This document shows, one piece after another, positions 2,146 through 58,605 of a stretch of DNA of 62,775 nt (positions within the stretch are counted from its first letter, which is position 1; each line of letters starts with the position of its first letter). A program made the translations under genes and the position numbers. Origin of the DNA: an uncultured Dehalococcoidia bacterium (GTDB lineage: Bacteria; Chloroflexota; Dehalococcoidia; DSTF01; JACRBR01). Location: NCBI GenBank assembly GCA_964458665.1, contig CAYWOO010000110.1, positions 1 through 62,775 of the forward strand, written 5' to 3'. The notes below the pieces were generated by a model. It searched no databases and was not told the origin of the DNA. It was given only the letters and a program-made list of their open reading frames with translations.

Positions 2146-2425
2146 CTCGGGGGACGATCCACTAAGAGCACGAAGGGCACGAAGGGGTTGGGGCCTCACC
2201 GCGGCCGTCGGCCGCGCCCTCTCCACACTGTGGAGAGGGCTCTCGGATCGGGGTGCGTGCTAGTTTCACGGGTGATGCGCTCGACGAGCGCGGGCGCGAC
2301 GGGTTGCGCCCTACGGCGCTACTGGCGATTTTCTCCGATGGTTGATCGTGTCGGCGCGGGCGGAGCTGTTGGGGGTGCCTGAAGTATGATGGCGGCTGAG
2401 GGAGTGGTTGTCTTCGGAGGGAGCC

Positions 2426-3053
2426 GTGTTGGGACTCTATCGTGCGCCGATGCTTGGGGCGGCGGTTGCCTTCTGGTTTGTCGTTGTGGTTGTGCTGATC
2501 GCGTGCGGCGGCGGCGGTGGGTCGGGGCCGACGGCGATCGTGGCGACGGCTACGGTTGTGCCGCCGGCTACGCCGCCGTGCTCGGGGGCGGAGCGGGTGA
2601 CTCCGGCGCAAGGGGGAAGGCCCGTTTTTCAAGGCGGGGTCGCCGGAGCGGGCTTCGCTGATCGAGGCGGATACATCGGGGACGGGGCTCGCCGTCACCG
2701 GGGTGGTGCTGTCGACGGATTGTCGGCCGGTTGCAGGGGCAACACTCGATTTCTGGCAGGCCGATGAATCGGGCGCGTACGACAACGCGGGCTTTCGACT
2801 GCGCGGACATCAGGCGACGGGCGCGGACGGGCGCTACAAGCTCGAGACGATCGTGCCGGGCGTGGAGACCGGGCGTGCGCGGCACATCCACGTGAAGGTG
2901 GAGGCGGCGAATCATGCGGCGCTGACGACGCAGCTGTTCTTCGCGGAGGACGCGTCGAACGCGGCGGACAGCAACTTCAGTGACGCGCTGGCGATGGCCG
3001 TCGAGCAAGACGGCGCGTCGCGGGCGGCCGGGTTCGACTTTGTGCTGCGGTAA
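2426..3053 (+). pseudogene. Intradiol ring-cleavage dioxygenase-like lipoprotein, frameshifted at a G5 run (2612-2616)
   Basis: Lipobox LIAC in one frame; DFWQAD...GAYD...LRGH...HIHVKV in another. Removing one G gives a continuous TPAQGEGPFFKAGSPERASL...VVLSTDC. GGAGG lies before GTG 2426. Confidence 0.8.
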
Positions 3054-3108
3054 TGGTGCAGGTTCTCGGTTTTAGGTTTTAGGGTATAGAATCGATCGCA
3101 GCTCGAAG

Positions 3109-3549
3109 TTAGCGGCGGCCGCCGAATAGTCGTTTGATCTGATCGATGACGCCGCCGCCAGCGCGGCCTTTCGCGCGCGCCCATGCTTCCTGCGCGCTAC
3201 CGGCACGGCGGAGCCCGAGCACGCGCTCCTTCATGATTTCGCGGACGCGTTCGGATTCACCGGCATCGAGCCAGAAGCCGTGGCCTTCGGCGCAGGCGTC
3301 GAGTTCGAGGTTGTAGGCGCGATAGTTGAAGGCGTGCATGGTCTGGCTGCAGGCGGGGCAGAGCAGCACACTCTCGTGCTTGGCGTACTCGACGGTGCCG
3401 ATGCGCTGCTCTTCGTCGGCGACGGTGGCTTCGAGTTCGGCGAGTTCGTCGTAGTCGTACCAGGCGCCGTGGCAGGCGTGGCAGCGGTCGATCGTGATGC
3501 CGTGGCCGGCTTCGGACTGGAGTTCGTTGGCGTCGCGGGGGCAGATCAT
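3109..3549 (-). CDS. Tandem zf-TFIIB-like zinc-ribbon protein
   Basis: Two repeats: CPRD...IDRCHACHGAWYD..EL and CPAC...LDACAEGHGFWLDAGE. Confidence 0.8.
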   Translation of the reverse strand: MICPRDANELQSEAGHGITIDRCHACHGAWYDYDELAELEATVADEEQRIGTVEYAKHESVLLCPACSQTMHAFNYRAYNLELDACAEGHGFWLDAGESERVREIMKERVLGLRRAGSAQEAWARAKGRAGGGVIDQIKRLFGGRR

Positions 3550-3875
3550 TCGTGCGGTACTCCTCGGGGTATTGTAGCTGGGGTGGTGTGGGGCCTCACC
3601 CGACCCTCTGCGCGTTACCACGGCGAGTAGGCCGGCGGAGAGGGAGAAACGGGGGCGAACAGAGGCGTGCTGTTCGACTCGGCCCGCGCTGGATCGAGCA
3701 CCTCACCCCCGGCCGTCGGCCACCCCCTCTCCACGCCCTGGATGAGGAGGATCGGATGGGAACCCGTCGGGTATCTGGGAGGGGCTGGGGGGTGGCGGAA
3801 CTGCCCTCACCACGGCGGGCGGGGCGCCCGTGCTCCATTTTTGATGCTGGCCTGCGTCCGGGAATGTGCAATTAG

Positions 3876-3892
3876 CATAATATGTAATTATG
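3876..3892. promoter_or_regulatory. Inverted repeat CATAAT-N5-ATTATG, likely autoregulatory operator of the TA pair
   Basis: Perfect 6-bp arms in an AT-rich patch 16 bp upstream of the antitoxin ATG. Confidence 0.55.
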
Positions 3893-3907
3893 TGATAGTG
3901 TAATTCT

Positions 3908-4677: not shown

Positions 4678-6333
4678 ATGGCAGAGGTTGATGGGGCGAC
4701 GCTGATTGCGCGGAGTTTGAAGCGGCACGGGGTTGAGTACATGTTCGGCATCGTGGGGGTGCCGGTGGTGCCGATTGCGTTTGCGGCGCAGCGGGAAGGG
4801 ATCCAGTACTTCGGGATGCGGCACGAGCAGTCGGCGTCGTACGCGGCGCAGGCCGTCGGCTATCTGACGGGGCGGCCGGGCGCGTGTCTCGCGGTGTCGG
4901 GGCCGGGGATGACGAACGCGATCTCGGGGCTGGCGAACGCGTGGTCGAATCGCTGGCCGATGATCCTGCTCGGCGGGGCGTCGGATATCTCGCAGCACGG
5001 CATGGGCGCGTTCCAGGAAGCGCCGCAGGTCGATGCGGCGCGGCCGTGGTGCAAGTATGCGGCAGAGGTCGACCGCGTCGACCGCATCCCGTACTTCGTC
5101 GAGCAGGCGGTGCGGACATCGATCTACGGGCGGCCGGGGCCGGTGTACCTCGACCTGCCGGCGGACGTCATCGGCGGCAAGGTAGACGAAGACGCCGCGC
5201 CGCAGCGGCCGCGCGTACCGGATGCGCCACGATCGTTCGCGGATCCGGCTTCGGTCGAGGCGGCGGTGGCGGCGTTAAAGTCGGCGGAGCGGCCGCTGGT
5301 GATCGTCGGCAAGGGGGCGGCGTATGCGCGTGCCGAGGACGAGGTGCGGGCGTTCATCGAATCGACGCAGCTGCCGTTTCTGGCGACGCCGATGGGGAAG
5401 GGCTTGATGCCCGACGACCATCCGCTGTCGGTCGGCGCCGCGCGATCGTTCGCGTTGCAGAACACGGACCTCGTGCTGCTGATGGGCGCCCGGCTGAACT
5501 GGATCCTGCACTTCGGTATGCCGCCGCGGTTCAACGCCGATGTGCGGGTGATCCAGATGGATATTGCGGCGGAGGAGATCGGAACGAACGTGCCGGCGGA
5601 GGTGGCGCTCGTTGGGGACGCAAAGGCGGTGACCGGGCAGCTCAACGGCTTGTTGCGCGAGCAGCCGTGGCAGTTCGCTGCGGAGAACACGTGGCGCACG
5701 GGCATCGCGAAGAAGATCGCGGACAACCAGGCGACGACGCAGGTGCAGTTCGACGACGACAGCGTGCCGATGAACTACTATCGAGTGCTGCGCGAGATCC
5801 GCGACATCCTGCCACGCGACGCGATCATCGCCAGCGAGGGCGCGAACACGATGGACATTGGCCGCACGGTGTTGCCGAACTTCCTGCCGCGCCATCGGCT
5901 CGATGCGGGGAGCTTCGGGACGATGGGTGTTGGGCTGTCGTTCGCGATTGCGGCGCAAGCGGTGAATCCGGGTACGCGCGTCGTTGCGGTCGAGGGCGAC
6001 TCGGCGTTCGGGTTCAGCGGGATGGAGGTGGAGGTGGCGTGCCGGTACGCGATGCCGATCACGTTCATCATCCTCAACAACAATGGCATCAGCGGCGGGC
6101 CGAGCACGATCGACCGGTCGCGCCCGCTGTTGCCGATGGCGTTGCTGCCGCAAGCGCGGTACGAGAAGGTGATCGAGGCGTTCGGCGGCGAGGGCTACTT
6201 CGTCGAGACGCCGGATCAGTTGCGGCCGACGCTGGAGAAGGCGTTTGCGAGCGGGAAGCCGAACGTGGTGAACATCATGATCAACGCGCAGGCGCAGCGG
6301 AAGGCGCAGGAGTTCGGGTGGTTGACGCGGTGA
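4678..6333 (+). CDS. TPP-dependent 2-hydroxyacyl-CoA lyase / oxalyl-CoA decarboxylase family enzyme
   Basis: MRHEQSASYAAQA, VSGPG, DAGSFGTMGVG and the TPP motif GDSAFGFSGME...NNNG. AGGAGG RBS upstream. Confidence 0.9.
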   Translation: MAEVDGATLIARSLKRHGVEYMFGIVGVPVVPIAFAAQREGIQYFGMRHEQSASYAAQAVGYLTGRPGACLAVSGPGMTNAISGLANAWSNRWPMILLGGASDISQHGMGAFQEAPQVDAARPWCKYAAEVDRVDRIPYFVEQAVRTSIYGRPGPVYLDLPADVIGGKVDEDAAPQRPRVPDAPRSFADPASVEAAVAALKSAERPLVIVGKGAAYARAEDEVRAFIESTQLPFLATPMGKGLMPDDHPLSVGAARSFALQNTDLVLLMGARLNWILHFGMPPRFNADVRVIQMDIAAEEIGTNVPAEVALVGDAKAVTGQLNGLLREQPWQFAAENTWRTGIAKKIADNQATTQVQFDDDSVPMNYYRVLREIRDILPRDAIIASEGANTMDIGRTVLPNFLPRHRLDAGSFGTMGVGLSFAIAAQAVNPGTRVVAVEGDSAFGFSGMEVEVACRYAMPITFIILNNNGISGGPSTIDRSRPLLPMALLPQARYEKVIEAFGGEGYFVETPDQLRPTLEKAFASGKPNVVNIMINAQAQRKAQEFGWLTR

Positions 6334-6424
6334 GTTTGCGGTTCACAGTGAACAGTTTGTAGTTCTCGGCCTGCGGCGCGCTGCAACATCGATCCGCTAC
6401 AATCGCTCGGATTTGTGGAGGGTG

Positions 6425-8094: not shown

Positions 8095-8290
8095 CCCGGC
8101 GGTTCGGCACGTTCTCTCGATTTCCGGATTCGAACATTGGTCTCAAATCGGGGGAGGCCATTCTACGGAATGCCCCTACGTGGCGTGCGTCGCTGGCATC
8201 AGGTGATTTGCTTGCGTACGAGGCGGCGCGCGGACTGAAGTCCGCGCTAGGGGCACGGGGCAGGGCGAGACCTGCCCCTACACGCGGCGT

Positions 8291-9820
8291 GTGAACATTC
8301 CCATTCGGTACTCTCTTTGCGTGGACTACGACGAGTCGCTGCGGTGGCTGCTGACGCTGCCTGATTTCGAGCGGACTGGCGACTTTTCTTCGCGGCCGGA
8401 TGTGGCGCCGATGCTGGCGTTGCTCTCCGAGCTGGGGGAGCCGCATCGCGGGCGGCCGACGGTGCATATCGCCGGGTCGAAGGGCAAGGGTAGTACGGGC
8501 GCTATGGTCGAGGCGGTGCTGGGCACGGCCGGTATGCGCACGGGGTATTACGTCAGTCCCCATCTGCATCGCTACAACGAACGGGTACGCATCGCGGGAC
8601 AGGCGATCGACATCGACGCGTTTGCGAGCGCTATGACGCGCGTGCGTGTGGCGATCGATGCTGTCGCGGCGCGGTTCGCGGGGCGGCAGTTTCTGGCGTT
8701 CGATGCGCTGACGGCGGCGGGGTTTGTGGCGTTTCGCGATGCGGGTGTCGATGCGCAGATCGTCGAGGTGGGGCTTGGCGGGCTGCTTGATTCTACGAAT
8801 GTGTTTGGGTGGTCGTCGGTCGTCGGTCGTCGGTCGTCGGAGAAGGGCGAGCGGGCGCCAGGAGATGAGGCAGTCGCGGGCGAACGAGCACCTCACCCCC
8901 CAGCCCCCTCTCCACGTCGTGGAGAGGGGGAGCTGCCCGCGCACGTTCTGGTGCTGACGCCGATCAGTTTGGAGCACACGGCGATTCTTGGGGATTCGAT
9001 TGCGGAGATCGCGGGGCAGAAGGCGGGGATCATCATTGAAGGCGCGGCCGTTGTGGTTGCGCCGCAGCGGGAATCGGCGCTGGATGTGTTTCGGGCGGTG
9101 GCGGCGGAGCGCGGGGCGATGCTGATCGAGGTGGCGCTTACCTGCCAGATGACGCGCACGACGGCGACCGCGGAGGGACAACGGTTCAAGATGAAGACTC
9201 CGCTAGAGACGTACGACGCGCAGTTGCCGCTTGTGGGACGCCATCAGCTGGACAACGCGGCGACGGCGATCGTGGCTTGCGAGGCGCTCGCTTCGGCTTG
9301 CGGGATCGAGCTGACGCCGGCGCACGTGCGTGCCGGGCTGGCGAACGTCGTGTGGCCGGGGCGGCTGGAGGTGCTGAGGCACAAGCCGCTGGTCATCGTG
9401 GACGGCGCGCACAACGGAGACTCGGCGAAGCGGATGGTAGCGGCGTTGCGCGAGTACTTCGGGCTGGTGCACGCGACGCTGCTGTTCGGGACGGTTGCCG
9501 GCAAGGACGTCGCGTCGATGGCGGACGCTGTTGCGCCGATTGCACGCGAGGTGTTCGTCACCGCGTGGCCGAGCGCCCGCGCGGCTGATCCGCGTGATGT
9601 GGCGGCGGCGTTTCGGCCGCACGAGGTGCCCGTATCGACGTTCGGCGATCTCGGTCAGGCGTACGAGGCGGCGTTGGCGCAGGCCGGCGAGCGCGGCGCT
9701 GTCGTGGCGTTCGGGTCGATCGCGTTCGTGGGTGCTGTGCGGGAGTACGTGCTGGGGATCGCATCGGATTCGATGCGGCTCGCGAGCGGCCGCCCGGGTA
9801 CATCGGAGAACGCGGGCTGA
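8291..9820 (+). CDS. folC: Folylpolyglutamate synthase/dihydrofolate synthase with an about 40-aa repeat-derived insertion
   Basis: HIAGSKGKGST, SPHL, EVGLGG..DSTNV, WPGRLE and DGAHN motifs. Confidence 0.95.
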   Translation: MNIPIRYSLCVDYDESLRWLLTLPDFERTGDFSSRPDVAPMLALLSELGEPHRGRPTVHIAGSKGKGSTGAMVEAVLGTAGMRTGYYVSPHLHRYNERVRIAGQAIDIDAFASAMTRVRVAIDAVAARFAGRQFLAFDALTAAGFVAFRDAGVDAQIVEVGLGGLLDSTNVFGWSSVVGRRSSEKGERAPGDEAVAGERAPHPPAPSPRRGEGELPAHVLVLTPISLEHTAILGDSIAEIAGQKAGIIIEGAAVVVAPQRESALDVFRAVAAERGAMLIEVALTCQMTRTTATAEGQRFKMKTPLETYDAQLPLVGRHQLDNAATAIVACEALASACGIELTPAHVRAGLANVVWPGRLEVLRHKPLVIVDGAHNGDSAKRMVAALREYFGLVHATLLFGTVAGKDVASMADAVAPIAREVFVTAWPSARAADPRDVAAAFRPHEVPVSTFGDLGQAYEAALAQAGERGAVVAFGSIAFVGAVREYVLGIASDSMRLASGRPGTSENAG

Positions 9821-12215: not shown

Positions 12216-12447
12216 CGCCGCGCGGTTGCGTTTTGGCGGCCGTGTTTGGTACCGTCACCTCATAGGCTTCCTCGGCAACACGTCCACTGCCGCCCCCATT
12301 TTGGCGCACATGACGACGCAGGGGTACGAGGCCGCGCCGGCTGTGGGCGGACGCAACGACACGGGCAGAAACGCCGTGGTTCGCCGGCCATTGACGATGC
12401 CGGAGCACCGAAGGACCCCACGGCGAGTAGGAAGGAACACAGAGAAC

Positions 12448-12663
12448 ATGGCGAACGGACAGATCAAGCGGCTCGTGCGGGACCGTGGCTTCGGATTCAT
12501 CCGGCCGGATGGCGCGTCGGAGGACATCTTTTTTCACAGCTCCGCGCTGACGGGCGGCATCTTCGACGAGCTGAATGAAGGACAGAACGTCGAATTCGAC
12601 ACAGAGTCGGACCCGCGCGACCCGAAGCGCAGCCGCGCGATCAACGTGCGCGTCACCGGCTAG
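12448..12663 (+). CDS. Cold-shock domain protein
   Basis: RNP1 RGFGFI and RNP2 DIFFHSS; 71 aa; AGGAAGGA RBS upstream. Confidence 0.95.
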   Translation: MANGQIKRLVRDRGFGFIRPDGASEDIFFHSSALTGGIFDELNEGQNVEFDTESDPRDPKRSRAINVRVTG

Positions 12664-12750: not shown

Positions 12751-12918
12751 TCACCGCGAAGTCGCGAAGAGCGCAAAGGTTGTTTGGGAGATTCACCACA
12801 GAGGACACGGAGGACACAGAGACTGAGTTGGGAGCGTGTCGGGATTATTCACCGCGAAGGCGCGAAGAGCGCGGAGGTTGTTGGGGGATTCACCACAGAG
12901 ATCACGGAGGACACAGAG
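12751..12918 (+). repeat. Cluster of four 9-bp-periodic elements (CACCGCGAAG.. / CACCACAGAG..) in A-B-A-B order
   Basis: Direct inspection: elements at about 12751, 12794, 12849 and 12889. Confidence 0.8.
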
Positions 12919-12977: not shown

Positions 12978-14105
12978 ATGACACACATGGAACACATGCA
13001 AGAGAAGCACGAAACGCAGCGCCAGGTGGTGGGCGTCGAGCCGCTGGAGCCGGCGAGCGTCCGCACGAGCGCGACGCGTCAGCGCATCAGGCGCCGGGCG
13101 GGCTCGGGCGATGCGGCGCTGGACGCGCGGATCGCCGAGCTTTTGGCTGGCGTTGACATTCCGCAGGCTGACCTGCTGCAGGACACGCTCGAGACCGCGT
13201 TTCGCATCGCGCGGACGGCGAATCGCGGCGAGATGAAGCTCGTACGGCGGTCGTTGCACGAGCTGGGGCGAGCGTTTCGCGTCTTCGCGCCGTATCGCGG
13301 CGTGCGCAAGGTCAGCGTGTTTGGATCGGCACGGACGGCGAACGACCACCCGGAGTACGCGATCGCGCGGGACTTTTCGTACAAGATCGCGGCTCGCGGC
13401 TGGATGGTGATCACGGGCGCGGGGCCGGGGATCATGGCGGCGGGGCACGAAGGCGCGGGCAAGCGCAACAGTTTCGGTGTCGGCATCAAGTTGCCAGGCG
13501 AGCAGGGCGCAAACGGGTTCATCGCGGGCGATCCCAAGCTGATCGACTTCAAGTACTTCTTCACGCGAAAGGTCACGTTCATGAAGGAGTCGGACGCCTT
13601 CGTGCTGTGCCCCGGGGGTCACGGCACGATGGACGAAGGCTTCGAGCTGCTTACCCTGATGCAGACGGGCAAGACGGCAATTCGCCCGGTGGTGCTTCTG
13701 GAGCCGAAGGGCGGCGACTACTGGCGGCACTGGGAGCGATTCGTACAAGCGCAACTGGTTGATCGCGGGTTGGCTTCGCCGGAAGATCTGTCGCTGTTCG
13801 AGCGGGCGGACAGCATCGATGGGGCGGTGGCGGTTATCGAGCATTTCTACGCGAACTACGACTCAGCGCGGTATGTCGGCGAGCGGCTGGTGATCCGACT
13901 GCGGCGTGCTCCTTCAGACGAGCAGCTCGACAGGTTGAACGACGCGTTCGGCGACGTCGTTGCGGCCGGGCGGATTGAGGCGTCCGGCATCACTGCGGCG
14001 GAGGCTCGCGACGGCGACGGCGTCGATCTGGCGCGCATCGCGCTGCGGCCGGTGCACAACTTCGGCCGCATCCGGCAGCTGATCGATGCGCTGAACGCGC
14101 TGTAG
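12978..14105 (+). CDS. LOG family (TIGR00730-like) nucleotide phosphoribohydrolase
   Basis: VSVFGSART, ITGAGPGIM, FKYFFTRKVTF, PGGHGTMDE. Confidence 0.9.
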   Translation: MTHMEHMQEKHETQRQVVGVEPLEPASVRTSATRQRIRRRAGSGDAALDARIAELLAGVDIPQADLLQDTLETAFRIARTANRGEMKLVRRSLHELGRAFRVFAPYRGVRKVSVFGSARTANDHPEYAIARDFSYKIAARGWMVITGAGPGIMAAGHEGAGKRNSFGVGIKLPGEQGANGFIAGDPKLIDFKYFFTRKVTFMKESDAFVLCPGGHGTMDEGFELLTLMQTGKTAIRPVVLLEPKGGDYWRHWERFVQAQLVDRGLASPEDLSLFERADSIDGAVAVIEHFYANYDSARYVGERLVIRLRRAPSDEQLDRLNDAFGDVVAAGRIEASGITAAEARDGDGVDLARIALRPVHNFGRIRQLIDALNAL

Positions 14106-14115
14106 CAGTGCAGTG

Positions 14116-14512
14116 ATGGGACAGCCGGGGACGGCTGGCCTCCAACGTGTTGCGCCGTCGCGACGGATCGTTCGTGTTTCGCCGTTGCGACGGATCGTTT
14201 CGTTTCAAACGCAAGGCCAACAGGCGGGGCGCCTGTCTGATGGTCCGGCGATGAGACAGCCGGGGACGGCTGTCCTCCAACGTGTTTCGCCGTCGCGACG
14301 GATCGTTCGTGTTTCGCCGTTGCGACGGATCGTTTCGTTTCAAACGCAAGGCCAACGGGCGGGGCGCCTGTCTGATGGTCCGGCGATGAGACGGCCGGGG
14401 ACGGCTGTCCTCCAACGTGTTGCGCCGTCGCGACGGATCGTTCGTGTTTCGCCGTTGCGACGGATCGTTTCGTTTCAAACGCAAGGCCAACAGGCGGGGC
14501 GCCTGTCCTACA
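14116..14512 (-). repeat. Tandem array, 3 x 135 bp, each unit carrying two REP-like hairpins (GGAG- and GTAG-headed on the - strand)
   Basis: Units start at 14121, 14256 and 14391; near-identical throughout. Confidence 0.95.
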
Positions 14513-15665: not shown

Positions 15666-15682
15666 GGGGCGATTCGGGTGGC

Positions 15683-16066
15683 GGGACAGCCGGGGACGGC
15701 TGGTCCTTCACGCGTGGTACCCGGAGCACGAGCATTGACCGTTTGGCCGACGCCGCTCGGATGCAAGGCTAACAGGCGGGGGCGCCTGTCCTACATGGCG
15801 GAGTGGGCGACGGACGGGGCGCAAGGCCGACAGCCGGGGACGGCTGTCCTCCAACGAGCGGTGGCGGGATCGGAGTTTCTTGATCTCAGCTCGGGCGCAA
15901 GGCTAACAGGCGGGGGCGCCTGTCCTACATGGCGGAGTGGGCGACGGACGGGGCGCAAGGCCGACAGCCGGGGACGGCTGTCCTCCAACGAGCGGTGTCG
16001 GGATCGGAGTTTCTTGATCTCAGCTCGGGCGCAAGGCCAACAGGCGGGGGCGCCTGTCCTACATGG
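15683..16066 (-). repeat. Tandem REP array, 134-bp period
   Basis: AACAGGCGGGGGCGCCTGTCCTACA at 15771, 15905 and 16039, interleaved with ACAGCCGGGGACGGCTG hairpins. Confidence 0.95.
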
Positions 16067-16262
16067 CCGGCCTGCAACTGGCCGGCGCCGCGGCCCTGGA
16101 TCGCGTCGTGCTGTTCGCCTTGACGCGTCCGCTTGAAGGTAGACCTAACGGGCGCGGTTATGTACCTTGCGAGCGGCTTCAGGTGCCGGTTTGCGCCTCG
16201 TGCTGAACAACGCACCCTGACCGTTTGCGTGAAACGCGATTCTGCCCAAGGGAGGGACGAAG

Positions 16263-28346: not shown

Positions 28347-28399
28347 GGTTGGCGGGCCCGGGCGGACACGCTCGTCCCGGGACGGCTTTGGCGAATGTC

Positions 28400-28860
28400 T
28401 GTCCGGCTTTGCCGGACGCACAGGTCTCCTGCGGCGACTCTTCGACCGGGGGCGGCTATGCCACGCGCTTTGCGCCTCGCACGCGACCAGTGGTTCTGAC
28501 GCGGGGTTTTGGCTTGCGTTGGTCCGGCTTTGCCGGACGCACAGCCGGGGCGGTTATGGCACGCGCTTCGCGCCTCGCACGCGACCAGTGGTTCTGACGC
28601 GGGGTTTTGGCGTGCGTTGGTCCGGCTTTGCCGGACGCACAGCCGGGGCGGCTATGGCACGCGCTTCGCGGCTTGCACGCGACCAGTGGTTCTGACGCGG
28701 GGTTTGGCGTGCGTTGGTCCGGCTTTGCCGGACGCACAGCCGGGGCGGCTATGCCACACGCTTCGCGGCTCGCACGCGACCAGTGGTTCTGACTCGGGGT
28801 TTTGGCGTGCGTTGGTCCGGCTTTGCCGGACGCACAGCCGGGGCGGCTATGCCACACGCT
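28400..28860 (-). repeat. Tandem array, 97-98-bp period, about 4.5 units, with paired hairpins (GTCCGGC..GCCGGAC and ACAGCCGGGGCGGCTAT)
   Basis: Units at 28522, 28620, 28717 and 28815, plus a degenerate copy at 28401. Confidence 0.95.
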
Positions 28861-29002
28861 TCACGGCTTCTTCTTTGAGCGACTTTCTTTGACCGGAGCG
28901 CGGGGCGGAGCTGAAGCTCTGCGGGTATTTCTTGTGGTTTCTGGCACGGGTTTGGTCGCGTTCCCGGCGTTTGCTGGATCGGGCTTGGCGCTGTTTTTGT
29001 AT

Positions 29003-30543: not shown

Positions 30544-32040
<1,497 letters not shown>

Positions 32041-37943: not shown

Positions 37944-38172
37944 TCTTTTCACCACAGAGGCACAAGAGGCACAGAGGATTCGATTGAAGTCGGGTGAGGA
38001 TGGTCCCTGACGGTTGCGGGCGGGGCGCCCGCGCTCCATTCGCTTTGGGCGTCGCGGCGGATCGGGCACCTCACCCTCGCCACGGCGAGCAGCCCGGCTT
38101 CTTCGGGCACGCCTCTCCACGACGTGGAGAGGGATCAGCACGGCGGTAGTGCTGATTTCCGGGCGTTGATGT

Positions 38173-47105: not shown

Positions 47106-47667
47106 CTACGCTGCGGCGGGCCGCTCGTAGATGCCGATCATGACGGCGCTAGCGCCGCGGTAGCGCGAGCCGTGGAATTTGGCTCCTTGCACCTCATCCC
47201 AAGGCGCCTCGCGCCAGTGTGTGCGACCGAAGCGCTTCATCAAGCATCTGCTGGTGAATTGCAGTGTGCCATCGGACATCGCGGCATCGATGCCGGGGTT
47301 GTAGCCGACCGGTACCCTGACCAACAATTTGCCGCCCGGCGCCAGTAGCTCTTTCAGGTGTTCGAGTGCTCGCGGTGCCTTGCCGACGTCGCGCGGAGTT
47401 TCGTCCCAGCCAACGTGTTCCAGCGTGGAAATCGCGACGATGACATCGTACTGGTGTCCCGGATCGTAGTCGACGATGGCCTGCTTGATGACGCCGTTGG
47501 CCTCCTCGTACTTGTCGAGGACGTCGTGGTGGACAGGTTGGTACCACGACAAGACGTTGCCGACCTCAAGCATGTTGTCCGACGGGTAGCGTTCGCACGC
47601 TCGTTCTTCCACGTGATGTTGTAGAGATGATAGAAGTAGTGGTACGTGCGTCCGAGCGCCGGCAGCG
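47106..47667 (-). pseudogene. SAM-dependent methyltransferase remnant (5' end truncated by IS; internal frameshifting deletion)
   Basis: LEVGNVLSWY, YDVIVAISTLEHVG and LLAPGGKL lie in one frame. The N-terminal ALGRTYHYFYHLYNITWKNERA lies in another frame, abutting the IS end. Confidence 0.75.
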
Positions 47668-48514
47668 TGTTGAAGTTCTGAGACTAAGTCCGCTGTGTGT
47701 TCCGAGACTTTGTCCGCGCTGGTGTTTCCTCGGTCGTAGGATGGGCAGTGTAAGACGGGAGGCGGGCGACAGCATAGCGCTGGCGTCCGTTTTCTGTTGT
47801 GTGGGAGTCGCGCCTCCACGGGTGACGAGGTCCAGGTGTCCAAGGCAGTGTCGTGGCGCAGGGTGCGGGTGATGGTACGGGCGGTGGAGGACGCTCGCCG
47901 ACGGTGCCGCGGCTGCGGGTGCGAAGCGGCAGGGCGATGGGTGCTTGCCGCGCGATGCAGGCGCCCTGGAAGTACACGCTAGCGCTGCCGTCCATGTGTT
48001 CGCGGATCTCGACCCGCGCTTTGGCGTACGATCGCCGCAGCGGCCCCGGCGGGATCGCGATGGCGCGCCCATTCGGCGCTCGCCGACGTTGCGGACTCGG
48101 GCGGCCAGCGCCGCGCAGCACACGTCGCACCGACGACCGGTGCAGGGCGATGGCGTGATGCTCCGCCAGGAGCTCGCTGAGATGCTGATCGTTACAGCCC
48201 GCGTAGGTGGTGCTGGCGAGCTCGAGCACCATCGCCACCACCCCCGGATCCAGGGCATGCGCGGGTCGGCGTCCGCGATTGCCATGGACCAGCACCTTTG
48301 GCCCGTCGCGCAGCAGCGCCGATCGCTGCCGCCGCAGGTGCCTCGGCGACCACCCCAGGAGTGCCGTCGCCTCCGCCGTCGTGCAGCTACCGTCAATCAC
48401 CCCGGTGAGCACCCGCGCCCGCATCTGTTCCGTCGCCGTCATGATGATGTCCTCGTTCATGAGAGGACAAAATCACAGAACAGTTACCGAGGACAGAATC
48501 TCGGAACACCAACA
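47668..48514 (-). mobile_element. Internally deleted IS1202/ISNCY-type insertion sequence (847 bp)
   Basis: Both ends start TGTTG and carry two 18-bp subterminal motifs of the type TGTTCCGAGACTTTGTCC; encloses a truncated transposase ORF. Confidence 0.85.
47684..48460 (-). pseudogene. Transposase lacking its DDE core
   Basis: N-terminal HTH region with HGNRGRRP is fused directly to the C-terminal PGP.RRSYAKARVEIREHMDG and PWTP...HPWRR; no integrase core (Q.DGS-like motif) in between. Confidence 0.8.
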
Positions 48515-48530
48515 TCGCGCCCGAGAGCAC

Positions 48531-48558
48531 TTGACATCCTGCCGTTCGGTGGTATCGT
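48531..48558 (+). promoter_or_regulatory. Sigma70-type promoter upstream of the surface-protein gene
   Basis: TTGACA-N16-TATCGT with a TG extension. Confidence 0.55.
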
Positions 48559-48666
48559 TGACCTCACTCCAATCCGCACGTTGCGGTCACACCCGGTGGC
48601 GCCTTCCGGCACAGCCTCTCGCGACGACTTCCGGCCCGCGCCGCCTGGACAAAGGCGGTACTCGTC

Positions 48667-50474
48667 ATGCTACGCACGGCTACGCTCTTCCTCATCATGA
48701 TGGCCATCGGCACGCTCTTCGCTGCCGTGCCGCAACGGGCCGACGCCGACCCGACGTTTGGCCTGTCGCTCGGTTCGCCGTCGGGCCCGCCCGGCGCCGG
48801 GCTCGAGCCCGCGCCAGGAGCACCGGCTTTCGGACCGCTGCCGCCACCGGTGGTGGTGATCCCGCCCGGCGCGCTCCCCCTCCCGGCGAGGTGGACGCCA
48901 GTTCGTTTGGCAACGAGCCGTTCCCTCCTCCAGCGCCATGGCACGTGGCGTTCTCCGTTGCGCCCGGGTCGGTCGGCCATCCGGGATCGCCACCGTTCCC
49001 GCCGCAACCGAATGTCACGTTTGAGACGGCGATAGGCGATGGCAGCACCGCGGGCGACATCTACCTGAGCCTCGATCCGGCGACGCTGCCCCTGGGCGGG
49101 TTCCCGGCATTCGCTGCGCCACCCTGCGGCCCCATCCGCTCGAATACGCAACTTGCCGACGAGAACGGCGTCGGGCCGCTCGCGTTCGGCGCGCCGAACG
49201 TCGGCCTCGGGCTGGTGCCGCTCGCCGACAATCTGGATACGCTCGACCTGAGCGACAACTCGGTGGTTGACTTCGTGCCGGCCGCGGGCGACGGCCTGCC
49301 TGACGTCCCCGTCTTCTTCTCCCTCAATGCTGCGACAGCCGCTGCGCTGGGTCCCGTGCCACCGAACTTCTCGCCGCCATCGGCTGCGACCGTGTATGCG
49401 TATTTCCCGCCCGGCGGGTTCCCCTTCGTGTTCGACTACATCCCCTTCTTCGCGCATGGGCTCGGTCCGGGCGATGACATCGATGCCCTTGCGCTGACGT
49501 ACTCGGGCGCGCCCGTTATGGCGGCCGGAGCCGGCTTCGGCGACCCCATGATGTTTTCTCTCACGCCGGTGTCGCCGACGCTGCCCGTTTTGGCCTCCGT
49601 TTGCTTCGGGCCCGGGACGGCGACCGCCGGCGACGTCTTCCTCGGCATTGGCGCGGCGCCCTTCCCGATCATCGACGCCGAAATGCTCGGTGTGAGTGCG
49701 CTGCGAACGGGCGGCCCCGTCAACGACAACGTGGACGCCATCGATATCTGCCTTGAGACGGGCATCGATCTGGACTTCGACTTTCAGGACAACGGTTGCG
49801 ATTTCGATGACGACGGCGATCTGATCGGCGACATGATCGACAACTGCCCGCTCGTGATGAATCCGACGCAGGCCGACCTCGATGGAGACCTCATCGGCGA
49901 CGCCTGCGACCCGGATATCGACGGCGACGGCGTCGGCAACGTCGTGGACAACTGTCCCGTCGCGGCGAACCCCTTGCAGGAGAACAACGATGCAGCCGTC
50001 GCGTATCTCTGGATTATCGACGGCAACGGCGCCGAAGGCGCGACGCTGGGCGGCGACGCCTGCGACGCGAACGACGACAACGATGGCTGCACGGACGTGC
50101 GGGAGGCGGGGCTGGTTCCCACGGCCGGCGGCATGCGCGATCGGCTTGTTCCGTGGGACTTCGCCGATGTGCCGGCGCCGGCACTGTTGCCGGCGACCCC
50201 TGGCAGTACGCGAAACCGGCTGATCACGCTTGCGGATGTGTTAGCTGACCTCCAGTACGTCGGAACTGCGGCCGCGATACCACTCACGCCGAACGTCAAC
50301 GGAGCGATGTACGGGAGCGACCTCAACGGCAACACCATTCCAGATGGGCGGGAGTACGACCGCACGCCCAGCACGACGCCCGGTCAGCCGTGGCGGTCAG
50401 GCCCGCCCAACGGGACGGTGACGCTCTCCGATGTGCTAACCGTGCTCGCGCAGGTTGGGACGAACTGTACGTAG
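48667..50474 (+). pseudogene. Secreted surface protein (thrombospondin type-3-like Ca repeats plus conserved C-terminal tail), with a -1 frameshift at 48876-48884
   Basis: The signal peptide frame (48667) ends at 49035; the rest of the protein is in the frame of ORF 48207-50474. Adding one C joins ...PPGALPLPGEVDASSFGNE. Contains DLDGDLIGDACDPDIDGDG and DNCP repeats. Confidence 0.8.
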
Positions 50475-50609: not shown

Positions 50610-52412
50610 ATGATCGTGAATGTCCATCGCCGGTTGGTCGCCGTGCTTTTGCTCGTGGTTTGCGCGGCTGCGTTCGTCCCGTCGGAGCGGACCGCCCTCG
50701 CGGTGGAGGGAGACACCGCGGCCGATCTGGTGTTCGGCCAACCCGACTTCACGACCCCAACCACATGTATGCCGTTGAGCGCGACCAGCCTTTGCGATCC
50801 TCGTGCCATCGCCATTGACGCCCTGGGGAACATGTACGTGGCGGAAAACACGTTCGCGCGCAGCCGCGTGGTACGGTACGACAATCCGGCCGGCACCTGC
50901 GGCTCGTGCGACACGGTGACGGCCGATGAGGTGTACGGGCAGGTTGACTTCACCGTAGGCACCTGCCTGGCGCCCACCAAAGACCGCCTCTGCCGCCCTG
51001 GTGCGTTGGCGGTTGACTCGAACGACCCGCTCGACGACACGGACGACGACCTCTACGTCGCCGATTATGCTAATGACCGTGTGCTGATTTATCACGATCC
51101 GCTTCACGATCGTGCAGCCGACGTGGTGCTCGGCCAGGGAGCGGCCTGCGATGGGGCTGGTGCTCAGTCCCCAAGCTGCCTGAACTCCGGCAGCTGCAAT
51201 ATCGGAGGCATCAGCGCGTCCACGCTGTGCAACCCTGCGGGCGTGACCATACATCCCAGCGGCGACGTATTCGTGAGCGACGGAAACAGCCGTGTGCTCC
51301 AATACACCGGTCTGGCGAATGGATCTGTATTGACCGCCGATCGAACCGCCGACGTCGTCCTCGGCCACGCGGACTTCACTACCGGTGGCTGCAACGAGGG
51401 AGGTGGCGCACAGCAGGACACGCTGTGCGGGCCGGAAGCCTTGGCGTTCGACAACGTGAGCCCCGGGATTCGCCTGTACGTGGCCGATCCGCAGAACAAC
51501 CGCGTGCTCTTTTACCAGGGGAACCCGCTGGTCAGCGGCCAAAACGCAAATTACGTCATGGGTCAGGCCGGAGACTTCACGACATCATCGTGTCTGGCGA
51601 TGAGCGCCGCCAGCCTCTGTTCTCCGCGAGGTATCGCTATCGACCTCGCGACTGACGACCTGTACGTCGCGGAGCAAGTTTCCCACCGTGTGCTCGCATA
51701 CCCGAATACGCTCGCGTCTGCGGACGCCGTCTACGGCCAGCCTGTTCTCGACTTCGTCAGCGGCACCTGCAACAATCTGGCTGTGGGCCCGGAAGGCCGA
51801 CTGTGTTCGCCCGTGGCCGTCGCAGTGCACTGCGGCGACCTGTATGCCGCCGACTATCAGAACAATCGTGTCCTCATGTATCGGGGCGTCAACGGCGCGA
51901 ACAACGACGCACTCGGCGGGCCATTCGGCAATCCACCGACCCTTCCGTGGATCGTCGACGGCGCCTCGCCGGAAGGTCTGACGACGGGAAACAATGTGTG
52001 TGACACGAACGACGACAACGATGGCTGCACGGACGTGAAAGAGGCAGGGCTGGCACCCACATCTGGTGGCATGCGCGATCCGCTCAATCCGTGGGACTTC
52101 GCCGATGTGCCTACGCCGCCGCTGCTGCCGGCCAGCACGACGGGCACGCGAAACAAGATCATCGGCCTGCCGGATGTGTTGGCGAATCTGCAGTACGTTG
52201 GGACCTCCGCCGCGAACCCGAACACGCCGAACGTCAACGGAGCGATGTACGGGAGCGACCTGAACGGCAACGGCATGATGGACGGCCGGGAGTACGACCG
52301 GATGCCCAGTACGACGCCCGGACAGCCGTGGCGGTCGGGACCGCCGAACGGGACGGTGACGCTGGGCGACGTGCTGACGGTGCTGGCGCAGTCGGGGACG
52401 AGCTGTAGTTAG
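50610..52412 (+). CDS. Secreted NHL-repeat beta-propeller protein with the same conserved C-terminal tail
   Basis: Signal peptide; repeated AD.V.GQ.DFT...C...LC.P..(I/L)A.D...LYVAD..N.RVL.Y units. Confidence 0.9.
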   Translation: MIVNVHRRLVAVLLLVVCAAAFVPSERTALAVEGDTAADLVFGQPDFTTPTTCMPLSATSLCDPRAIAIDALGNMYVAENTFARSRVVRYDNPAGTCGSCDTVTADEVYGQVDFTVGTCLAPTKDRLCRPGALAVDSNDPLDDTDDDLYVADYANDRVLIYHDPLHDRAADVVLGQGAACDGAGAQSPSCLNSGSCNIGGISASTLCNPAGVTIHPSGDVFVSDGNSRVLQYTGLANGSVLTADRTADVVLGHADFTTGGCNEGGGAQQDTLCGPEALAFDNVSPGIRLYVADPQNNRVLFYQGNPLVSGQNANYVMGQAGDFTTSSCLAMSAASLCSPRGIAIDLATDDLYVAEQVSHRVLAYPNTLASADAVYGQPVLDFVSGTCNNLAVGPEGRLCSPVAVAVHCGDLYAADYQNNRVLMYRGVNGANNDALGGPFGNPPTLPWIVDGASPEGLTTGNNVCDTNDDNDGCTDVKEAGLAPTSGGMRDPLNPWDFADVPTPPLLPASTTGTRNKIIGLPDVLANLQYVGTSAANPNTPNVNGAMYGSDLNGNGMMDGREYDRMPSTTPGQPWRSGPPNGTVTLGDVLTVLAQSGTSCS

Positions 52413-52424
52413 GGTGCGCTGGCA

Positions 52425-52575
52425 GGCGTGACGAGCGGGGCGGACACACAGGTCCGCCCCTACGGCGACCCACAGCCGGGGGCGGCTGTGCCACATCGCG
52501 GGCGTGACGAGCGGGGCGGACACGCAGGTCCGGCCCGTACGGCGACCCACAGCCGGGGGCGGCTGTGCCACATCG
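52425..52575 (-). repeat. Tandem array, 2 x 76 bp, with GTAG- and GTGG-headed REPs
   Basis: The - strand reads GTAGGGGCGGACCTGTGTGTCCGCCCC and GTGGCACAGCCGCCCCCGGCTGTG; units at 52425 and 52501. Confidence 0.9.
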
Positions 52576-52647
52576 ACGGCAACGCGGGCGGCTGTAGCAC
52601 ATCGCGGGCGCGTCGAGCGTATGCGGGGGCGCTGATATACTCGCGCG

Positions 52648-53388: not shown

Positions 53389-53615
53389 AGCCACGAAGGG
53401 CACGAAGTACGTTGGGCGGAGCGTTGCGCTGGTGCCCGGGCGTTCGTGTCATACGAAGTTCCGTCCAACCGGCGGGGCGCCTGTCCTACAGCGACGGCGC
53501 GACGTTAGCCACGAAGGACACGAAGGGGCACGAAGTGGTTCGGGCGGAGCGTTGTGCTGGCGCTCGGCGTTCGTGTGAGGTCCGCGCCCGCCCGACAGGC
53601 GGGGCGCCTGTCGTA
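53389..53615. repeat. Two composite units of 9-bp-periodic element (CCACGAAGG.CACGAAG) plus GTAG-type REP
   Basis: Periodic elements at about 53389 and 53508; GGCGGGGCGCCTGTC at about 53471 and 53598. Confidence 0.8.
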
Positions 53616-53663
53616 TGTTTCTTGATGACCGATCGGGCGCGGCGCCTTGTGATGTTGTGGCGG

Positions 53664-54344
53664 TCAGGCGGCGTTGTGCTCTTCCTTCGGAGTGGCAGGC
53701 ATGAATTGTGCGAGCGTTTCGCGCTGGAAGTCGAGGTCGAGCCACTCGGCTGGCGCGCCGGTCTGGCGTAGCGTGGTGTAGGTCGCATTCATGATGTCGT
53801 GGTCGAGGCCGAGCGCTTGCAGGCGCTGCATTTCGGCGAGGGCCTGGTCGTCGGAGAGAAGGCCGCGTGCGACTTTGTTCCAGACGATCCCGGCCATGTA
53901 GGAAGACTGCGTCCAGCTCTTCTCGTCCAGGACGCCTCGCGCGGTCGCTTCATTGACCAGTGTCACCGGCTGGGGACAGCGGCTCATGACATCTTCGGCG
54001 ACGCTGCCGACAAAGAGACGATCCAGCCCGCGCCGGCCGCGTGTGCCCATGACGATCACGTCGACTTCGTACTCTGCGGCGACCTTGGCGATCTCCGCGG
54101 CGGGATCGCCCTTGCGGACGATTCCGTGGGCTGCGATGCCCTGAGAGCGAAGCTGAGCCTCGAACGCGTCGACGTATGTTTCGGCCGAGCGGATGGCGTG
54201 TGGTGTGAGGGACCTGATGACTGGAACGACGTGCAACAGGTGGATTGTGGCGCCAGTGACGCTGGCCAACCGCTGCAGGTGCGCCAGGAGAATGCGATCG
54301 CGGGATGATTGATCGAGTGGCGCAAGGGCCTTAAGTGTGGTCAT
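53664..54344 (-). CDS. Universal stress protein (UspA domain plus C-terminal extension)
   Basis: LAPLDQS, DVIVMGTRGRRGLDRLFVGSVAEDVM..CP.PV. Confidence 0.92.
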   Translation of the reverse strand: MTTLKALAPLDQSSRDRILLAHLQRLASVTGATIHLLHVVPVIRSLTPHAIRSAETYVDAFEAQLRSQGIAAHGIVRKGDPAAEIAKVAAEYEVDVIVMGTRGRRGLDRLFVGSVAEDVMSRCPQPVTLVNEATARGVLDEKSWTQSSYMAGIVWNKVARGLLSDDQALAEMQRLQALGLDHDIMNATYTTLRQTGAPAEWLDLDFQRETLAQFMPATPKEEHNAA

Positions 54345-57323: not shown

Positions 57324-57790
57324 ACACGCACCTTCGGCCCGTAGATGATGGTGATGCCGCGTGGCTGGACGGATGGCTGGCGCCTGTTGCCGCATCTGTC
57401 GGATATGACGGGATCGCGGGTGAGCGGCCGGGTTCGACGTTGATGGAGCGGCTGCGGGGCGAACGGCGGCTGCGGGCGCAGATTATTGTGCGCGATAGCG
57501 ATGATGTTGGGCTGGTCGCGTACCGCACGAGTGCGCCCAAGCGGGATGCGGCGGTCGTCGAGATCGTGGCGACGCCGCCTGCACTCGCACGTCGCGGGTC
57601 GGGGATGAGTGCGGTGGCGCTGGTCGAGGATGCGGTGCGGGCGGAAGGTGCGCGAGTGGTGTACGCGCCGGCGCCTTCGGCTCACGGTATCGGGACATAC
57701 TTCTGGATCAGGTTGGGGTATCGGCCGCTGCTGCGTGCTGATTGGCCGTGCGAGCGGGCAGGTGTCGCGTGGTTGGTGCGGGAGTTGTGA
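57320..57790 (+). CDS. GNAT-fold-like protein
   Basis: IVATPPALARRGSG and YFWIRLGY resemble acetyl-CoA-binding motifs; GTG start overlaps the dinG stop. Confidence 0.65.
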   Translation: MNTHLRPVDDGDAAWLDGWLAPVAASVGYDGIAGERPGSTLMERLRGERRLRAQIIVRDSDDVGLVAYRTSAPKRDAAVVEIVATPPALARRGSGMSAVALVEDAVRAEGARVVYAPAPSAHGIGTYFWIRLGYRPLLRADWPCERAGVAWLVREL

Positions 57791-57796
57791 GCGCGC

Positions 57797-57932
57797 GAGC
57801 AGGGCATTCTACGGAATGCCCCTACGCGAACGGTGTGCGTGCTATTGCTTGGCTGGTGCGGGAGCTCTAGCGCGTGACGAGCGAGGGCATTCTACGGAAT
57901 GCCCCTACGCGAACGGTGTGCGTGCTATTGCT
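57797..57932 (-). repeat. Tandem duplication (about 83 bp) with REP GTAGGGGCATTCCGTAGAATGCCC
   Basis: Copies at 57801 and 57884; a related copy lies at about 8157. Confidence 0.9.
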
Positions 57933-58242
57933 CGTCGGGGTGGACGATGACGTCTTCGGTTTCGTCTTCGCGATCGCGGCGGGTGCGGCCGGCGGTAACG
58001 ACGTTGGTCACGAGCAGGTGCGCGAGGCTGTAGCTGACGCCGAGCAGGGCGGCGATCTGTAGCACGAACGCGGCGGGGTTGACCGAGCCCTCGTTGATGA
58101 TGAAGGCGATGAGCATGCCGGTGGCGAAGGCGGCGAAGACGGGGAAGGATCGCCAGCGCCAGTCGGGGCGGGAGCGGGTTTTCGCTGGGTGCGGTTCGGC
58201 CGTCGGTGAGGAGCTTGGTTGGGGGCGTTTTTTGGTGGGCAT
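57925..58242 (-). CDS. Small two-TM membrane protein
   Basis: Two hydrophobic helices with charged termini. Confidence 0.7.
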   Translation of the reverse strand: MPTKKRPQPSSSPTAEPHPAKTRSRPDWRWRSFPVFAAFATGMLIAFIINEGSVNPAAFVLQIAALLGVSYSLAHLLVTNVVTAGRTRRDREDETEDVIVHPDEQ

Positions 58243-58329
58243 CAGGGCGTGCCGGCGGGCGCACAGCCGTGCGCCCCTACGCGGGCGTTGGTGGCGCACA
58301 CGATCTGTGGGTTCAGAGTGATCGCGTGT

Positions 58330-58605
58330 GCTGCGTCGGTCCGGCGTTGCCGGACGGACAGCCGGGGGCGGCTATCCCACATCGAAGAGTCGCGGTCATT
58401 CGTTGCGCACGCGACCGTTGGGCGCTGGTCGATCGAGCGTTGTGCGTAGGTCCGGCTATGCCGGACGGACAGGCGAGGACGGCTATCCCACATCGAATGT
58501 GCGGAGTCGTTCGGGACGCACGCGACCGGCTCGCGCGTCGCGATGGGGTGTGCTGCGTTGGTTCGGCTGTGCCGGACGGAAAGGCGAGGACGGCTATCCC
58601 ACATA
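58330..58605 (-). repeat. Degenerate tandem array, 3 x about 111 bp, with GTGG-headed REP (..CGGCTATCCCACAT)
   Basis: Units at about 58341, 58452 and 58563; a single GTAG REP lies at 58257-58280. Confidence 0.85.

Follow-up and report, generated by a model that had tools for sequence, protein, structure and literature searches.

The 62,775-bp stretch of contig CAYWOO010000110.1 analysed here (the window) comes from the genome of an uncultured member of the Chloroflexota class Dehalococcoidia and carries a dense population of repetitive extragenic palindromic (REP) hairpins, all of which point the same way. In a fuzzy census with a tolerance of four errors, 34 copies with a head were counted in 11 intergenic regions, and not a single reversed one. 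The elements are of a known kind, REPs of the GT(A/G)G-headed super-family that is associated with REP-associated tyrosine transposases (RAYTs). Their direction is probably fixed to the replication strand rather than to transcription, as the outcome of an asymmetry in single-stranded DNA (ssDNA) at the replication fork that acts on a strand-specific enzyme of the HUH type. The closest homologues of FabF are 88-93% identical, and those that bear a name come from Dehalococcoidia or Chloroflexota metagenome-assembled genomes (MAGs). No FabF at 100% identity turned up in the protein collection, nor did any record identical to the window's GltB.

Direction of the REP copies in the window

Each copy is made up of a GC stem of 7-9 bp, a loop of 3-6 nt and a tetranucleotide head. 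In all 34 the head (GTAG, GTGG or GGAG) lies on the - strand, and the + strand shows the tail CTAC, CCAC or CTCC. These are the properties of REPs: short, GC-rich imperfect palindromes with a 5' head, present in many copies (34 in 62.8 kb) and extragenic. A first-pass annotation of the window had described about 30 GTAG-type REP hairpins with every head on the - strand. The coordinates that it named agree with ours, its count rises to 34 with no reversed copy, and its classification is borne out by the occurrence of the same core next to Y1_Tnp/RAYT genes in other genomes (see below).

At least five sequence-distinct types (A-E) can be told apart, besides several one-off hairpins of the form GGGGC...GCCCC-TAC. 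Read on the + strand, type A is GACAGCCG-ggga-CGGCTGTC-CTCC, with a GGAG head on the - strand; type B is ACAGGCG-ggg(g)-CGCCTGT-CCTAC (GTAG head on -); type C is (G)CACAGCCG-ggg(g)-CGGCT(A/G)TG(C)-CAC (GTGG head on -); type D is GGGCATTC-tacg-GAATGCCC-CTAC (GTAG head on -); and type E is CGGGCG-ggg-CGCCCG-(T/C)GCTCC (GGAG head on -). The heads of types B, C and D and of the GCCCCTAC types are the canonical GTAG or GTGG, and the GGAG of types A and E is a non-canonical variant that other phyla also show together with this core. The loop differs from type to type (GGGA, GGGG, GGG, TACG, ACACAG, AGCC).

The uniformity does not hinge on how the copies are detected. The pattern ACAGSCGGGGN{0,2}CGSCTRTSCYMC gave 12 matches, all on the + strand, with none expected from 100 shuffles; the pattern GCCCCTAC gave six, again all on +, with 0.85 expected. 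A screen blind to the loop sequence (stem of at least 7 bp with at most one mismatch, loop of 3-7 nt) returned 22 intergenic hairpins with a CTAC, CTCC or CCAC tail on the + strand versus two with a GTAG, GGAG or GTGG head on that strand. One of these two also bears a + strand tail, and the other is the accessory hairpin GTCCGGC-NNN-GCCGGAC described below. Loop-agnostic stem detection in the window likewise gave 10 of 10 in the same direction.

When each region is counted as one event, agreement of all 11 corresponds to a two-sided p of ~0.001. One could still envision that the uniform direction arose by local tandem duplication and chance, from few independent insertions. About two thirds of the 34 copies do lie in six tandem arrays, within which direction is inherited; the independent gaps number only 11; and a difference in unit number between strains (see below) shows that slippage or amplification is active. 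Yet such an origin is very improbable, for the 11 gaps agree without exception, as do the sequence-distinct types (A-E and the GCCCCTAC types), two unrelated repeat families of the window are polarised in the same manner, and the same bias is found in three independent collections from other organisms.

Folded as ssDNA, the hairpins reach -8 to -10 kcal/mol on either strand (z-scores of -2.8 to -4.4). A strand difference in hairpin stability was rejected, since the folding energies of the two strands are at most 0.3 kcal/mol apart. We also discarded a CRISPR reading, as the units have no unique spacers, and a reading as intrinsic terminators, as no T-run follows the hairpins. Rfam and tRNA scans returned no match, and the arrays thus do not belong to any RNA family on record; BLAST searches of plasmids, with the arrays or one REP as query, gave no usable match.

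Replication strand and local transcription

The window has a GC content of 65%, and the GC skew of its + strand is 0.10-0.16 along most of its length, approaching zero only at 46-52 kb. The + strand skew amounts to 0.116 inside - genes versus 0.103 inside + genes, to 0.30 versus 0.11 at the third codon positions of the same two classes, and to 0.13 in intergenic DNA. Because the + strand is G-rich in genes of both orientations, the skew is a property of the chromosome strand and not of the transcript. Leading strands are generally G-rich, and by this rule the + strand of the window is the leading strand. The head-bearing strand of the REPs, being the C-rich one, is by the same rule the leading-strand template; the lagging-strand template has the same sequence as the + strand.

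Most genes share the direction of the leading strand: about 41 of 50 gene calls, made crudely from GC content at third codon positions (GC3), are on the + strand. Five - strand genes are confirmed by Pfam, namely those for a zinc ribbon protein (3109-3621), His_Phos_1 (38173-38784), a methyltransferase (47106-47843), Usp (53664-54344) and a PolyA_pol/CCA enzyme, or CCA/polyA-polymerase (58987-60276). REPs might be elements of the 3' untranslated region, acting as mRNA stabilisers or in a terminator-like fashion, that follow the upstream gene and seem polarised by virtue of the ~80% of genes that lie on the leading strand. Six of the 11 REP-bearing gaps separate co-directional + genes and three more are convergent. 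Arrays begin 12-90 nt past the stop codons of + genes (14105 to 14117, 15665 to 15683, 52412 to 52437 and 57790 to 57802), and REPs in general are mostly found downstream of genes and are transcribed (PMC3733652).

However, REP direction is identical in all 11 gaps, including the two that do not fit this scheme. One is the divergent gap 3622-3907 between the - strand zinc ribbon gene and a + strand MazE-like gene, which holds the REP at 3812-3836. The other holds the array at 58257-58605, flanked by the - strand open reading frames (ORFs) 57925-58242 and 58658-58975, the latter of which starts 11 bp after the Pfam-confirmed - strand CCA-enzyme gene. A sense transcript would contain the head form at 58257..58602 versus the tail form at the loci of + genes. 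The claim of the first-pass annotation that orientation is independent of local transcription, being kept between - genes (58257-58605) and in divergent or convergent gaps, is supported. Evidence from other genomes points the same way: REPs with the same core that lie between co-directional genes are sense in 16 cases versus antisense in 23, gene orientation contributes nothing once skew is in the model, and on the contig of a relative a REP (locus L197, below) is antisense to the adjacent gene and concordant with skew. If one adds that no T-run follows the hairpins and that they fold equally well on both strands, a 3'-untranslated origin of the polarity is unlikely.

Direction and GC skew in other genomes

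A degenerate-pattern scan covering one genome per species returned at least 118 blocks (L001-L118). Among the matches listed are Planctomycetota, Verrucomicrobiota, Acidobacteriota, Chloroflexota, delta-proteobacterial lineages, Nitrospirota, Hydrogenedentota and others. MAGs from at least eight phyla, and 17 viral contigs of IMG/VR, share an identical core of 23-24 nt (e.g. CACAGCCGGGGGCGGCTGTGCCAC), which speaks either for wide horizontal transfer of its RAYT or for a very strong constraint on the hairpin. At each locus we noted which strand has the tail form and set this against the sign of the local GC skew. The search pattern used on these genomes required a GGGG loop, and loop-agnostic detection was run alongside.

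In genome contigs the tail form is on the G-rich strand at 69 loci versus 34 on the C-rich strand (p=0.0007), a ratio that becomes 11 versus 1 at an absolute skew of at least 0.08. Two independent sets behave alike: 16 versus 1 in viral contigs, and 48 versus 28 in metagenome contigs (26 versus 5 at an absolute skew of at least 0.04). Loop-agnostic stems gave 117 versus 45, and 25 versus 1 at an absolute skew of at least 0.08. Across 95 loci of other genomes with a GC content of at least 0.60, REP direction correlates with GC skew (r=0.50, p=2e-7) versus r=0.12 (p=0.26) for the per-strand share of coding sequence. When both variables were entered into one logistic model, skew had a standardised coefficient of 2.23 and gene orientation one of -0.14, and the component of skew that remains after correction for gene direction predicts REP direction at 18 of 20 loci where it is at least 0.04.

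A contig of a relative that carries the window's type C composite (Ga0326597_10000023, 238 kb, 66-67% GC) provides a switch of sign within one molecule. At 31.8-44.7 kb (L172) the skew is +0.07 and the tail form of the REP is on the + strand of the contig. At 187.7-199.1 kb (L197) genes of either orientation have a skew of -0.14, and the tail form is on the - strand with the adjacent gene on the + strand. REP direction and skew flip together, with one REP on each side of the switch. This flip, the replication-type skew of the window and the 95-locus correlation all support the proposal of the first-pass annotation that the REPs are polarised by replichore.

It is worth considering whether composition alone could feign such a pattern, if only copies with a G-rich loop on the G-rich strand stayed recognisable and reversed copies decayed faster. 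The skew of the window is indeed strong (0.10-0.16), and the pattern applied to other genomes did demand the GGGG loop. Nevertheless, loop-agnostic detection agrees both in the window (22 versus 2; 10 of 10) and elsewhere. The element is itself nearly balanced in G and C, with 9 G versus 9 C in type A and 10 versus 9 in type C by direct count, and differential decay would alter ratios by a few per cent rather than produce 11:1 to 25:1; decayed reversed copies are absent from the window at up to four errors. An artefact of this sort is hardly credible.

Alternatively, the polarity could result from selection for a strand-polar signal in the G-rich loop and stem of the REP, similar to FtsK-orienting polar sequences (KOPS), SpoIIIE recognition sequences (SRS) or Chi. 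REPs would then be carriers of an architecture-imparting sequence, and the strand specificity of RAYT would not be the cause of the polarity. The + strand form has runs of G (CCGGGGACGG, GCGGGGGCG), and one REP copy contains GGGCAGGG, which matches the Escherichia coli KOPS consensus, GGGNAGGG. The like polarity of unrelated repeats in the window would also suggest a general selective or mutational polarity acting on intergenic repeats. Against this, the G-run is simply the loop, whose sequence differs between types, and type D and the GCCCCTAC types keep the same direction with no G-run in their loops. We know of no polar motif for Chloroflexota, which also counts against such selection, and we judge it improbable.

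Returning to a polarity set by replication strand, one could ask how far it extends. It might be a general and hitherto unnoticed property of a RAYT/REP super-family that spans many phyla and whose core is GT(A/G)G-(G/C)ACAGSCG-loop-CGSCTGT, the recognised strand being kept on the leading-strand template. We offer this only tentatively, as an idea whose chances fall somewhat short of even. If it is true, what RAYTs do in living cells would be tied to the ssDNA of the lagging strand, and orientation-dependent loss would shape REP populations. The Dehalococcoidia genome studied here would then be an extreme case, in which polarity is complete, extends to all types and is accompanied by tandem arrays in place of inverted doublets.

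Association with RAYT genes

In two of the blocks (L006 and L027) a small ORF shows HUH and Y motifs, scores 24-25 bits against Y1_Tnp (PF01797; Pfam gathering cut-off 23) and is flanked on both sides by CACAGCCG-type REPs. By phmmer, homologous ORFs adjoin a REP in L033, L066 and L012 as well, which brings the total to 5 of 118 among the matches listed. A profile search yielded thousands of homologues, many of them named 'REP element-mobilizing transposase RayT' by the Joint Genome Institute (JGI). Because the same core sits by RAYT genes in these genomes, the elements of the window may be classed as REPs in the strict, RAYT-associated sense. Y1 transposases flanked by these REPs, the association that the first-pass annotation had proposed to look for, are thus found in other genomes; phmmer detected no RAYT-like ORF in the 62.8-kb window, in keeping with its statement that the window has none. 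The RAYT ORFs as called (L027, reverse strand, ~5780-6350; L066, 142-673) read through the flanking REPs, giving peptides such as VAQPPPAV, and the RAYT of L066 is split by a frameshift.

Syntenic loci in relatives identified through FabF (88-91% protein identity; L119-L123) were also examined. L120-L123 have no REP-type hairpins, and L119 has other REP families along with a diverged copy of the composite formed by the accessory hairpin and type C. Skew is weak in L119-L122 and reaches -0.063 in L123. When metagenomes were scanned for the REP together with CAAGGCYR, its lineage-specific 5' extension, there were zero matches.

Strand sign and a possible mechanism

By analogy with characterised systems, the substrate of RAYT would be the strand that has GTAG 5' of the hairpin. 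The strand with head and hairpin, the form that a Y1/HUH RAYT would bind as ssDNA, lies on the C-rich leading-strand template, and its complement, with the purine-rich loop and the 3' CTAC, CCAC or CTCC, on the template of the lagging strand, which is G-rich. The polarity is most likely caused by the combination of ssDNA asymmetry at the replication fork with a strand-specific HUH enzyme. A copy that exposes its recognised strand on the lagging-strand template would be lost by cutting or excision or be counter-selected. One that has this strand sheltered, on the template of the leading strand, would persist, and sheltered copies would be amplified in place to yield direct tandems of 77-135 bp composite units with two or three different hairpins. 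The scheme supposes that a RAYT encoded by the host genome acts on the copies in the window, and that polarity is set by orientation-dependent loss, not by oriented insertion.

The sign of the polarity is relevant to this choice. The first-pass annotation had invoked the replication-strand bias of the IS200/IS605 insertion sequences (IS). That analogy holds in so far as direction correlates with the replication strand; it fails as to sign, which is the opposite, the head strand of the REPs lying on the leading-strand template. A simple model of oriented insertion at the fork would, given this opposite sign, need an added selection step.

Several observations weigh against a direction set by replication and deserve to be set out together. 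The sign just mentioned is contrary to that of the IS200/IS605 elements, whose active strand is the lagging-strand template (PMC3333891; PMC3971601). Within the window only one gap between - ORFs and one divergent gap separate replication from transcription, and the two small - ORFs that flank the 58257-58605 array are without Pfam support. Polarity in the host genome rests on this one window of 62.8 kb, with no ori/ter flip and no RAYT in it. In other genomes local skew in fragments of 3-14 kb serves as a proxy for the replichore, and the gene calls there are crude and GC3-based. L119 and L189 hold both REP directions, and both loci of the complete genome of Planctomycetales ZRK34 (CP050848.1) contradict the rule, at weak skew. 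Finally, polarity depends on the family: in L149 and L208 it is the G-rich strand that bears the head of the GTAG-CGCGGGCT-TTCT-AGCCCGCGC family.

This last family occurs in related Dehalococcoidia-type loci in the form of 119-bp tandem arrays, at 1355-2207 of L149, 8587-8846 of L208, and 12261-12558 and 13069 of L119.

Relation to known systems

REPs tagged with GTAG and their RAYT/TnpA-REP transposases have been described before (Nunvar 2010, PMC2817692; Ton-Hoang 2012, PMC3333891; Di Nocera 2013, PMC3733652). Like them, the elements of the window are GC-rich imperfect palindromes of 20-30 nt with a 5' GT(A/G)G head. They are extragenic, mostly downstream of genes, present in many clustered copies with flanking DNA reiterated in tandem, and they share their core with repeats around Y1_Tnp genes elsewhere. 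Chloroflexi and bacteria of the Planctomycetes-Verrucomicrobia-Chlamydiae (PVC) group have been listed as hosts of GTAG repeats, with head-tail (HT) dimers and tandem clusters (Di Nocera 2013, PMC3733652). Unlike the elements described, those of the window all run one way relative to the replication strand, and the GGAG variant of the head is common. No report of REP polarity relative to replication was found in the REP papers that we searched, and where published models of REPs bring in ssDNA of the lagging strand, they do so only on the analogy of IS608 (PMC3333891). What is new, as far as we could find described, is the complete replication-strand polarity together with direct tandems, and the statistical polarity of the core across phyla.

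The composites built from REPs, with fixed spacing and a copy number that varies between strains, recall the REP doublets forming hairpins (REPINs; Bertels and Rainey 2011, PMC3116915) and the bacterial interspersed mosaic elements (BIMEs) of E. coli. In those, however, REPs are inverted or alternate, whereas the units of the window combine different REP sequences in direct orientation. With the IS200/IS605 family the REPs share a Y1/HUH enzyme working on ssDNA hairpins and a correlation between element direction and fork movement. Those elements are oriented with the fork, since it is the lagging-strand template on which their Y1 transposase acts (Ton-Hoang 2010, cited in PMC3333891; Gomez 2014, PMC3971601) and where the active (top) strand lies, in contrast to the leading-strand template location of the REP head strand.

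The best functional analogue of REP polarity is provided by the attC sites of sedentary chromosomal integrons. In their large, stable arrays the active attC strand is on the leading-strand template, a placement that restricts how far the sites fold and are excised (Loot 2017, PMC5371416). Both are structure-specific recombination hairpins with one active strand, kept on the leading-strand template; they differ in that attC sites are handled by the tyrosine recombinase IntI and flank gene cassettes in one array, whereas REPs would be handled by an HUH nuclease and are dispersed through the genome. Besides linking REPs to this precedent, a replication-strand orientation rule would give a direct genomic read-out of how REPs spread and persist and of the role of RAYTs in cells, and it predicts that REP stability depends on orientation in the presence of the cognate RAYT. 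On the practical side, the core that recurs in Planctomycetota, Verrucomicrobiota, Acidobacteriota, Chloroflexota and other phyla breaks short-read assemblies and yields spurious ORFs.

REP loci and array structure

Sequences below are those of the + strand, and every locus has its REP heads on the - strand. Four single or paired copies lie in the left part of the window. A single REP at 2292..2314 reads GGGCGCGA-cggg-TTGCGCCC-TAC (GTAG head). The REP of the divergent gap, at 3812..3836, is a single type E copy, ACGGGCG-GGG-CGCCCGT-GCTCC (GGAG head). The 8156..8281 locus holds a type D REP at 8156-8179, GGCCATTC-tacg-GAATGCCC-CTAC, and a second REP at 8257-8281, GGGGCAGG-gcgaga-CCTGCCCC-TAC. 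Types A and B alternate in a direct tandem array at 14115..14511, in one direction throughout, which begins ~12 nt past the stop codon of the + gene 12978-14105. At 15683..16062 a degenerate type A copy (15685-15709) is followed by a direct tandem in which B and A alternate, both types being preceded by GCAAGGCY. The direct array at 28396..28857 is made of composite units, in each of which the accessory hairpin GTCCGGC-ttt-GCCGGAC is directly followed by a type C REP, GCACAGCCG-ggg-CGGCTATGC-CAC (GTGG head on -), with the conserved flank ACGCTTCGCG.

Three convergent gaps and two arrays make up the remainder. A single type E copy, GCGGGCG-ggg-CGCCCGC-GCTCC, occupies the convergent gap at 38014..38037. 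At 52437..52571 a unit consisting of GGGGCGGAC-acacag-GTCCGCCCC-TAC and a type C REP, CACAGCCG-gggg-CGGCTGTG-CCAC, is repeated twice in direct tandem, with a degenerate third copy after it (~52580-52597). The convergent gap at 53465..53616 contains two B-like REPs, 53465-53489 (..GGCGGGGCGCCTGTCCTAC) and 53593-53616 (CGACAGGCG-ggg-CGCCTGTCG-TAT, with a decayed head), both preceded by CACGAAGG direct repeats. In the convergent gap at 57802..57908 there are two type D REPs, GGGCATTC-tacg-GAATGCCC-CTAC, in a direct tandem of two 83-bp units. The locus at 58257..58602 comprises one REP (58257-58280, GGGCGCAC-agcc-GTGCGCCC-CTAC) followed by three composite units of accessory hairpin and type C.

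Tandem Repeats Finder delimits six direct arrays with periods of 77-135 bp and 2-4.3 units, which hold about two thirds of the copies: 14115-14507 (135 bp, 2.9 units), 15755-16067 (134 bp, 2.3 units), 28449-28868 (98 bp, 4.3 units), 52425-52575 (77 bp, 2 units), 57770-57932 (83 bp, 2 units) and 58320-58604 (111 bp, 2.6 units). Unlike REPs are paired in the same direction within a unit, A with B at 14.1 and 15.8 kb and the GGGGCGGAC hairpin with type C at 52.4 kb. Inverted REPIN doublets were sought as reversed copies with up to four errors and none was found in the window; the units are direct repeats, just as the first-pass annotation had described them. Inverted doublets of the same core do occur in many of the scanned genomes of other phyla (among them L007, L017, L030, L049, L061, L063, L074 and L094).

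The accessory hairpin is the sole qualification to this uniformity. At 28.4 and 58.3 kb GTCCGGC-NNN-GCCGGAC stands directly before each REP, and its + strand 5' flank is GTTG, GTCG or, once, GTAG. It could be a diverged or decayed inverted REP partner, in which case the type C units would be fixed hetero-dimers. BIME-type alternation is never seen among head-bearing REPs, and the composite unit itself is uniformly oriented. Since the composite of accessory hairpin, type C and ACGCTTCGCG flank recurs in the Dehalococcoidia-type loci L072, L119 and L197, it is an element in its own right.

Array size varies between strains. In a related strain of ~95% identity from a second freshwater-sediment metagenome (run X2) there is one unit versus the 2.9 of the window at 14107-14457. 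In contigs from the source metagenome, the depth of bins that contain REPs exceeds that of the bins beside them 4-13 times. Together, the strain difference and the depth indicate that the REP families are multi-copy and recently dynamic. Short-read contigs of both metagenome runs break at REP arrays.

Each 135-bp unit of the 14.1-kb array (14146-14199, 14281-14334, 14416-14469) contains two copies of a 27-bp direct sub-repeat, CGTGTTKCGCCGTYGCGACGGATCGTT. The sub-repeat includes the perfect palindrome CCGTCGCGACGG, and the unit therefore has four hairpins, not two.

Other repeats and compositional features of the window

Two further repeat families are found between the genes. One, unrelated to the REPs, has the form CTCACC...GGCCACCCCTCTCCAC-NNN-GTGGAGAGGGG-ATTGGATGGG and is present in seven copies at five loci, all in the same direction on the + strand (2195-2242, 3702-3735, 8892-8930, 31981-32208, 32894-32920 and 38070-38132). 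Between sufB and sufD it forms a tandem of 2.9 units of 79 bp that overlaps with the end of the sufB ORF. The family shares the polarity of the REPs, yet its hairpin is without a GTAG-type head. The other consists of direct repeats that are short and rich in purines. These, CACGAAGG(G) and CACAGAGG(A), occur as two or three tandem copies that are intergenic and often precede a REP or a gene start. Fifteen are on the + strand and two on the - strand, with examples at 2160-2186, 12797-12821, 12912, 18159-18182, 37953-37977, 53392 and 53510-53527.

The segment 46000-52400 is the sole stretch of the window in which GC skew is at or below zero. It includes two large paralogous + genes (48207-50474 and 50610-52412), which share the C-terminal motif GPPNGTVTL.DVLTVLAQ.GT.C, and the - strand methyltransferase gene (47106-47843). 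The third-position skew of these genes is negative, and the segment may be recently acquired or inverted DNA.

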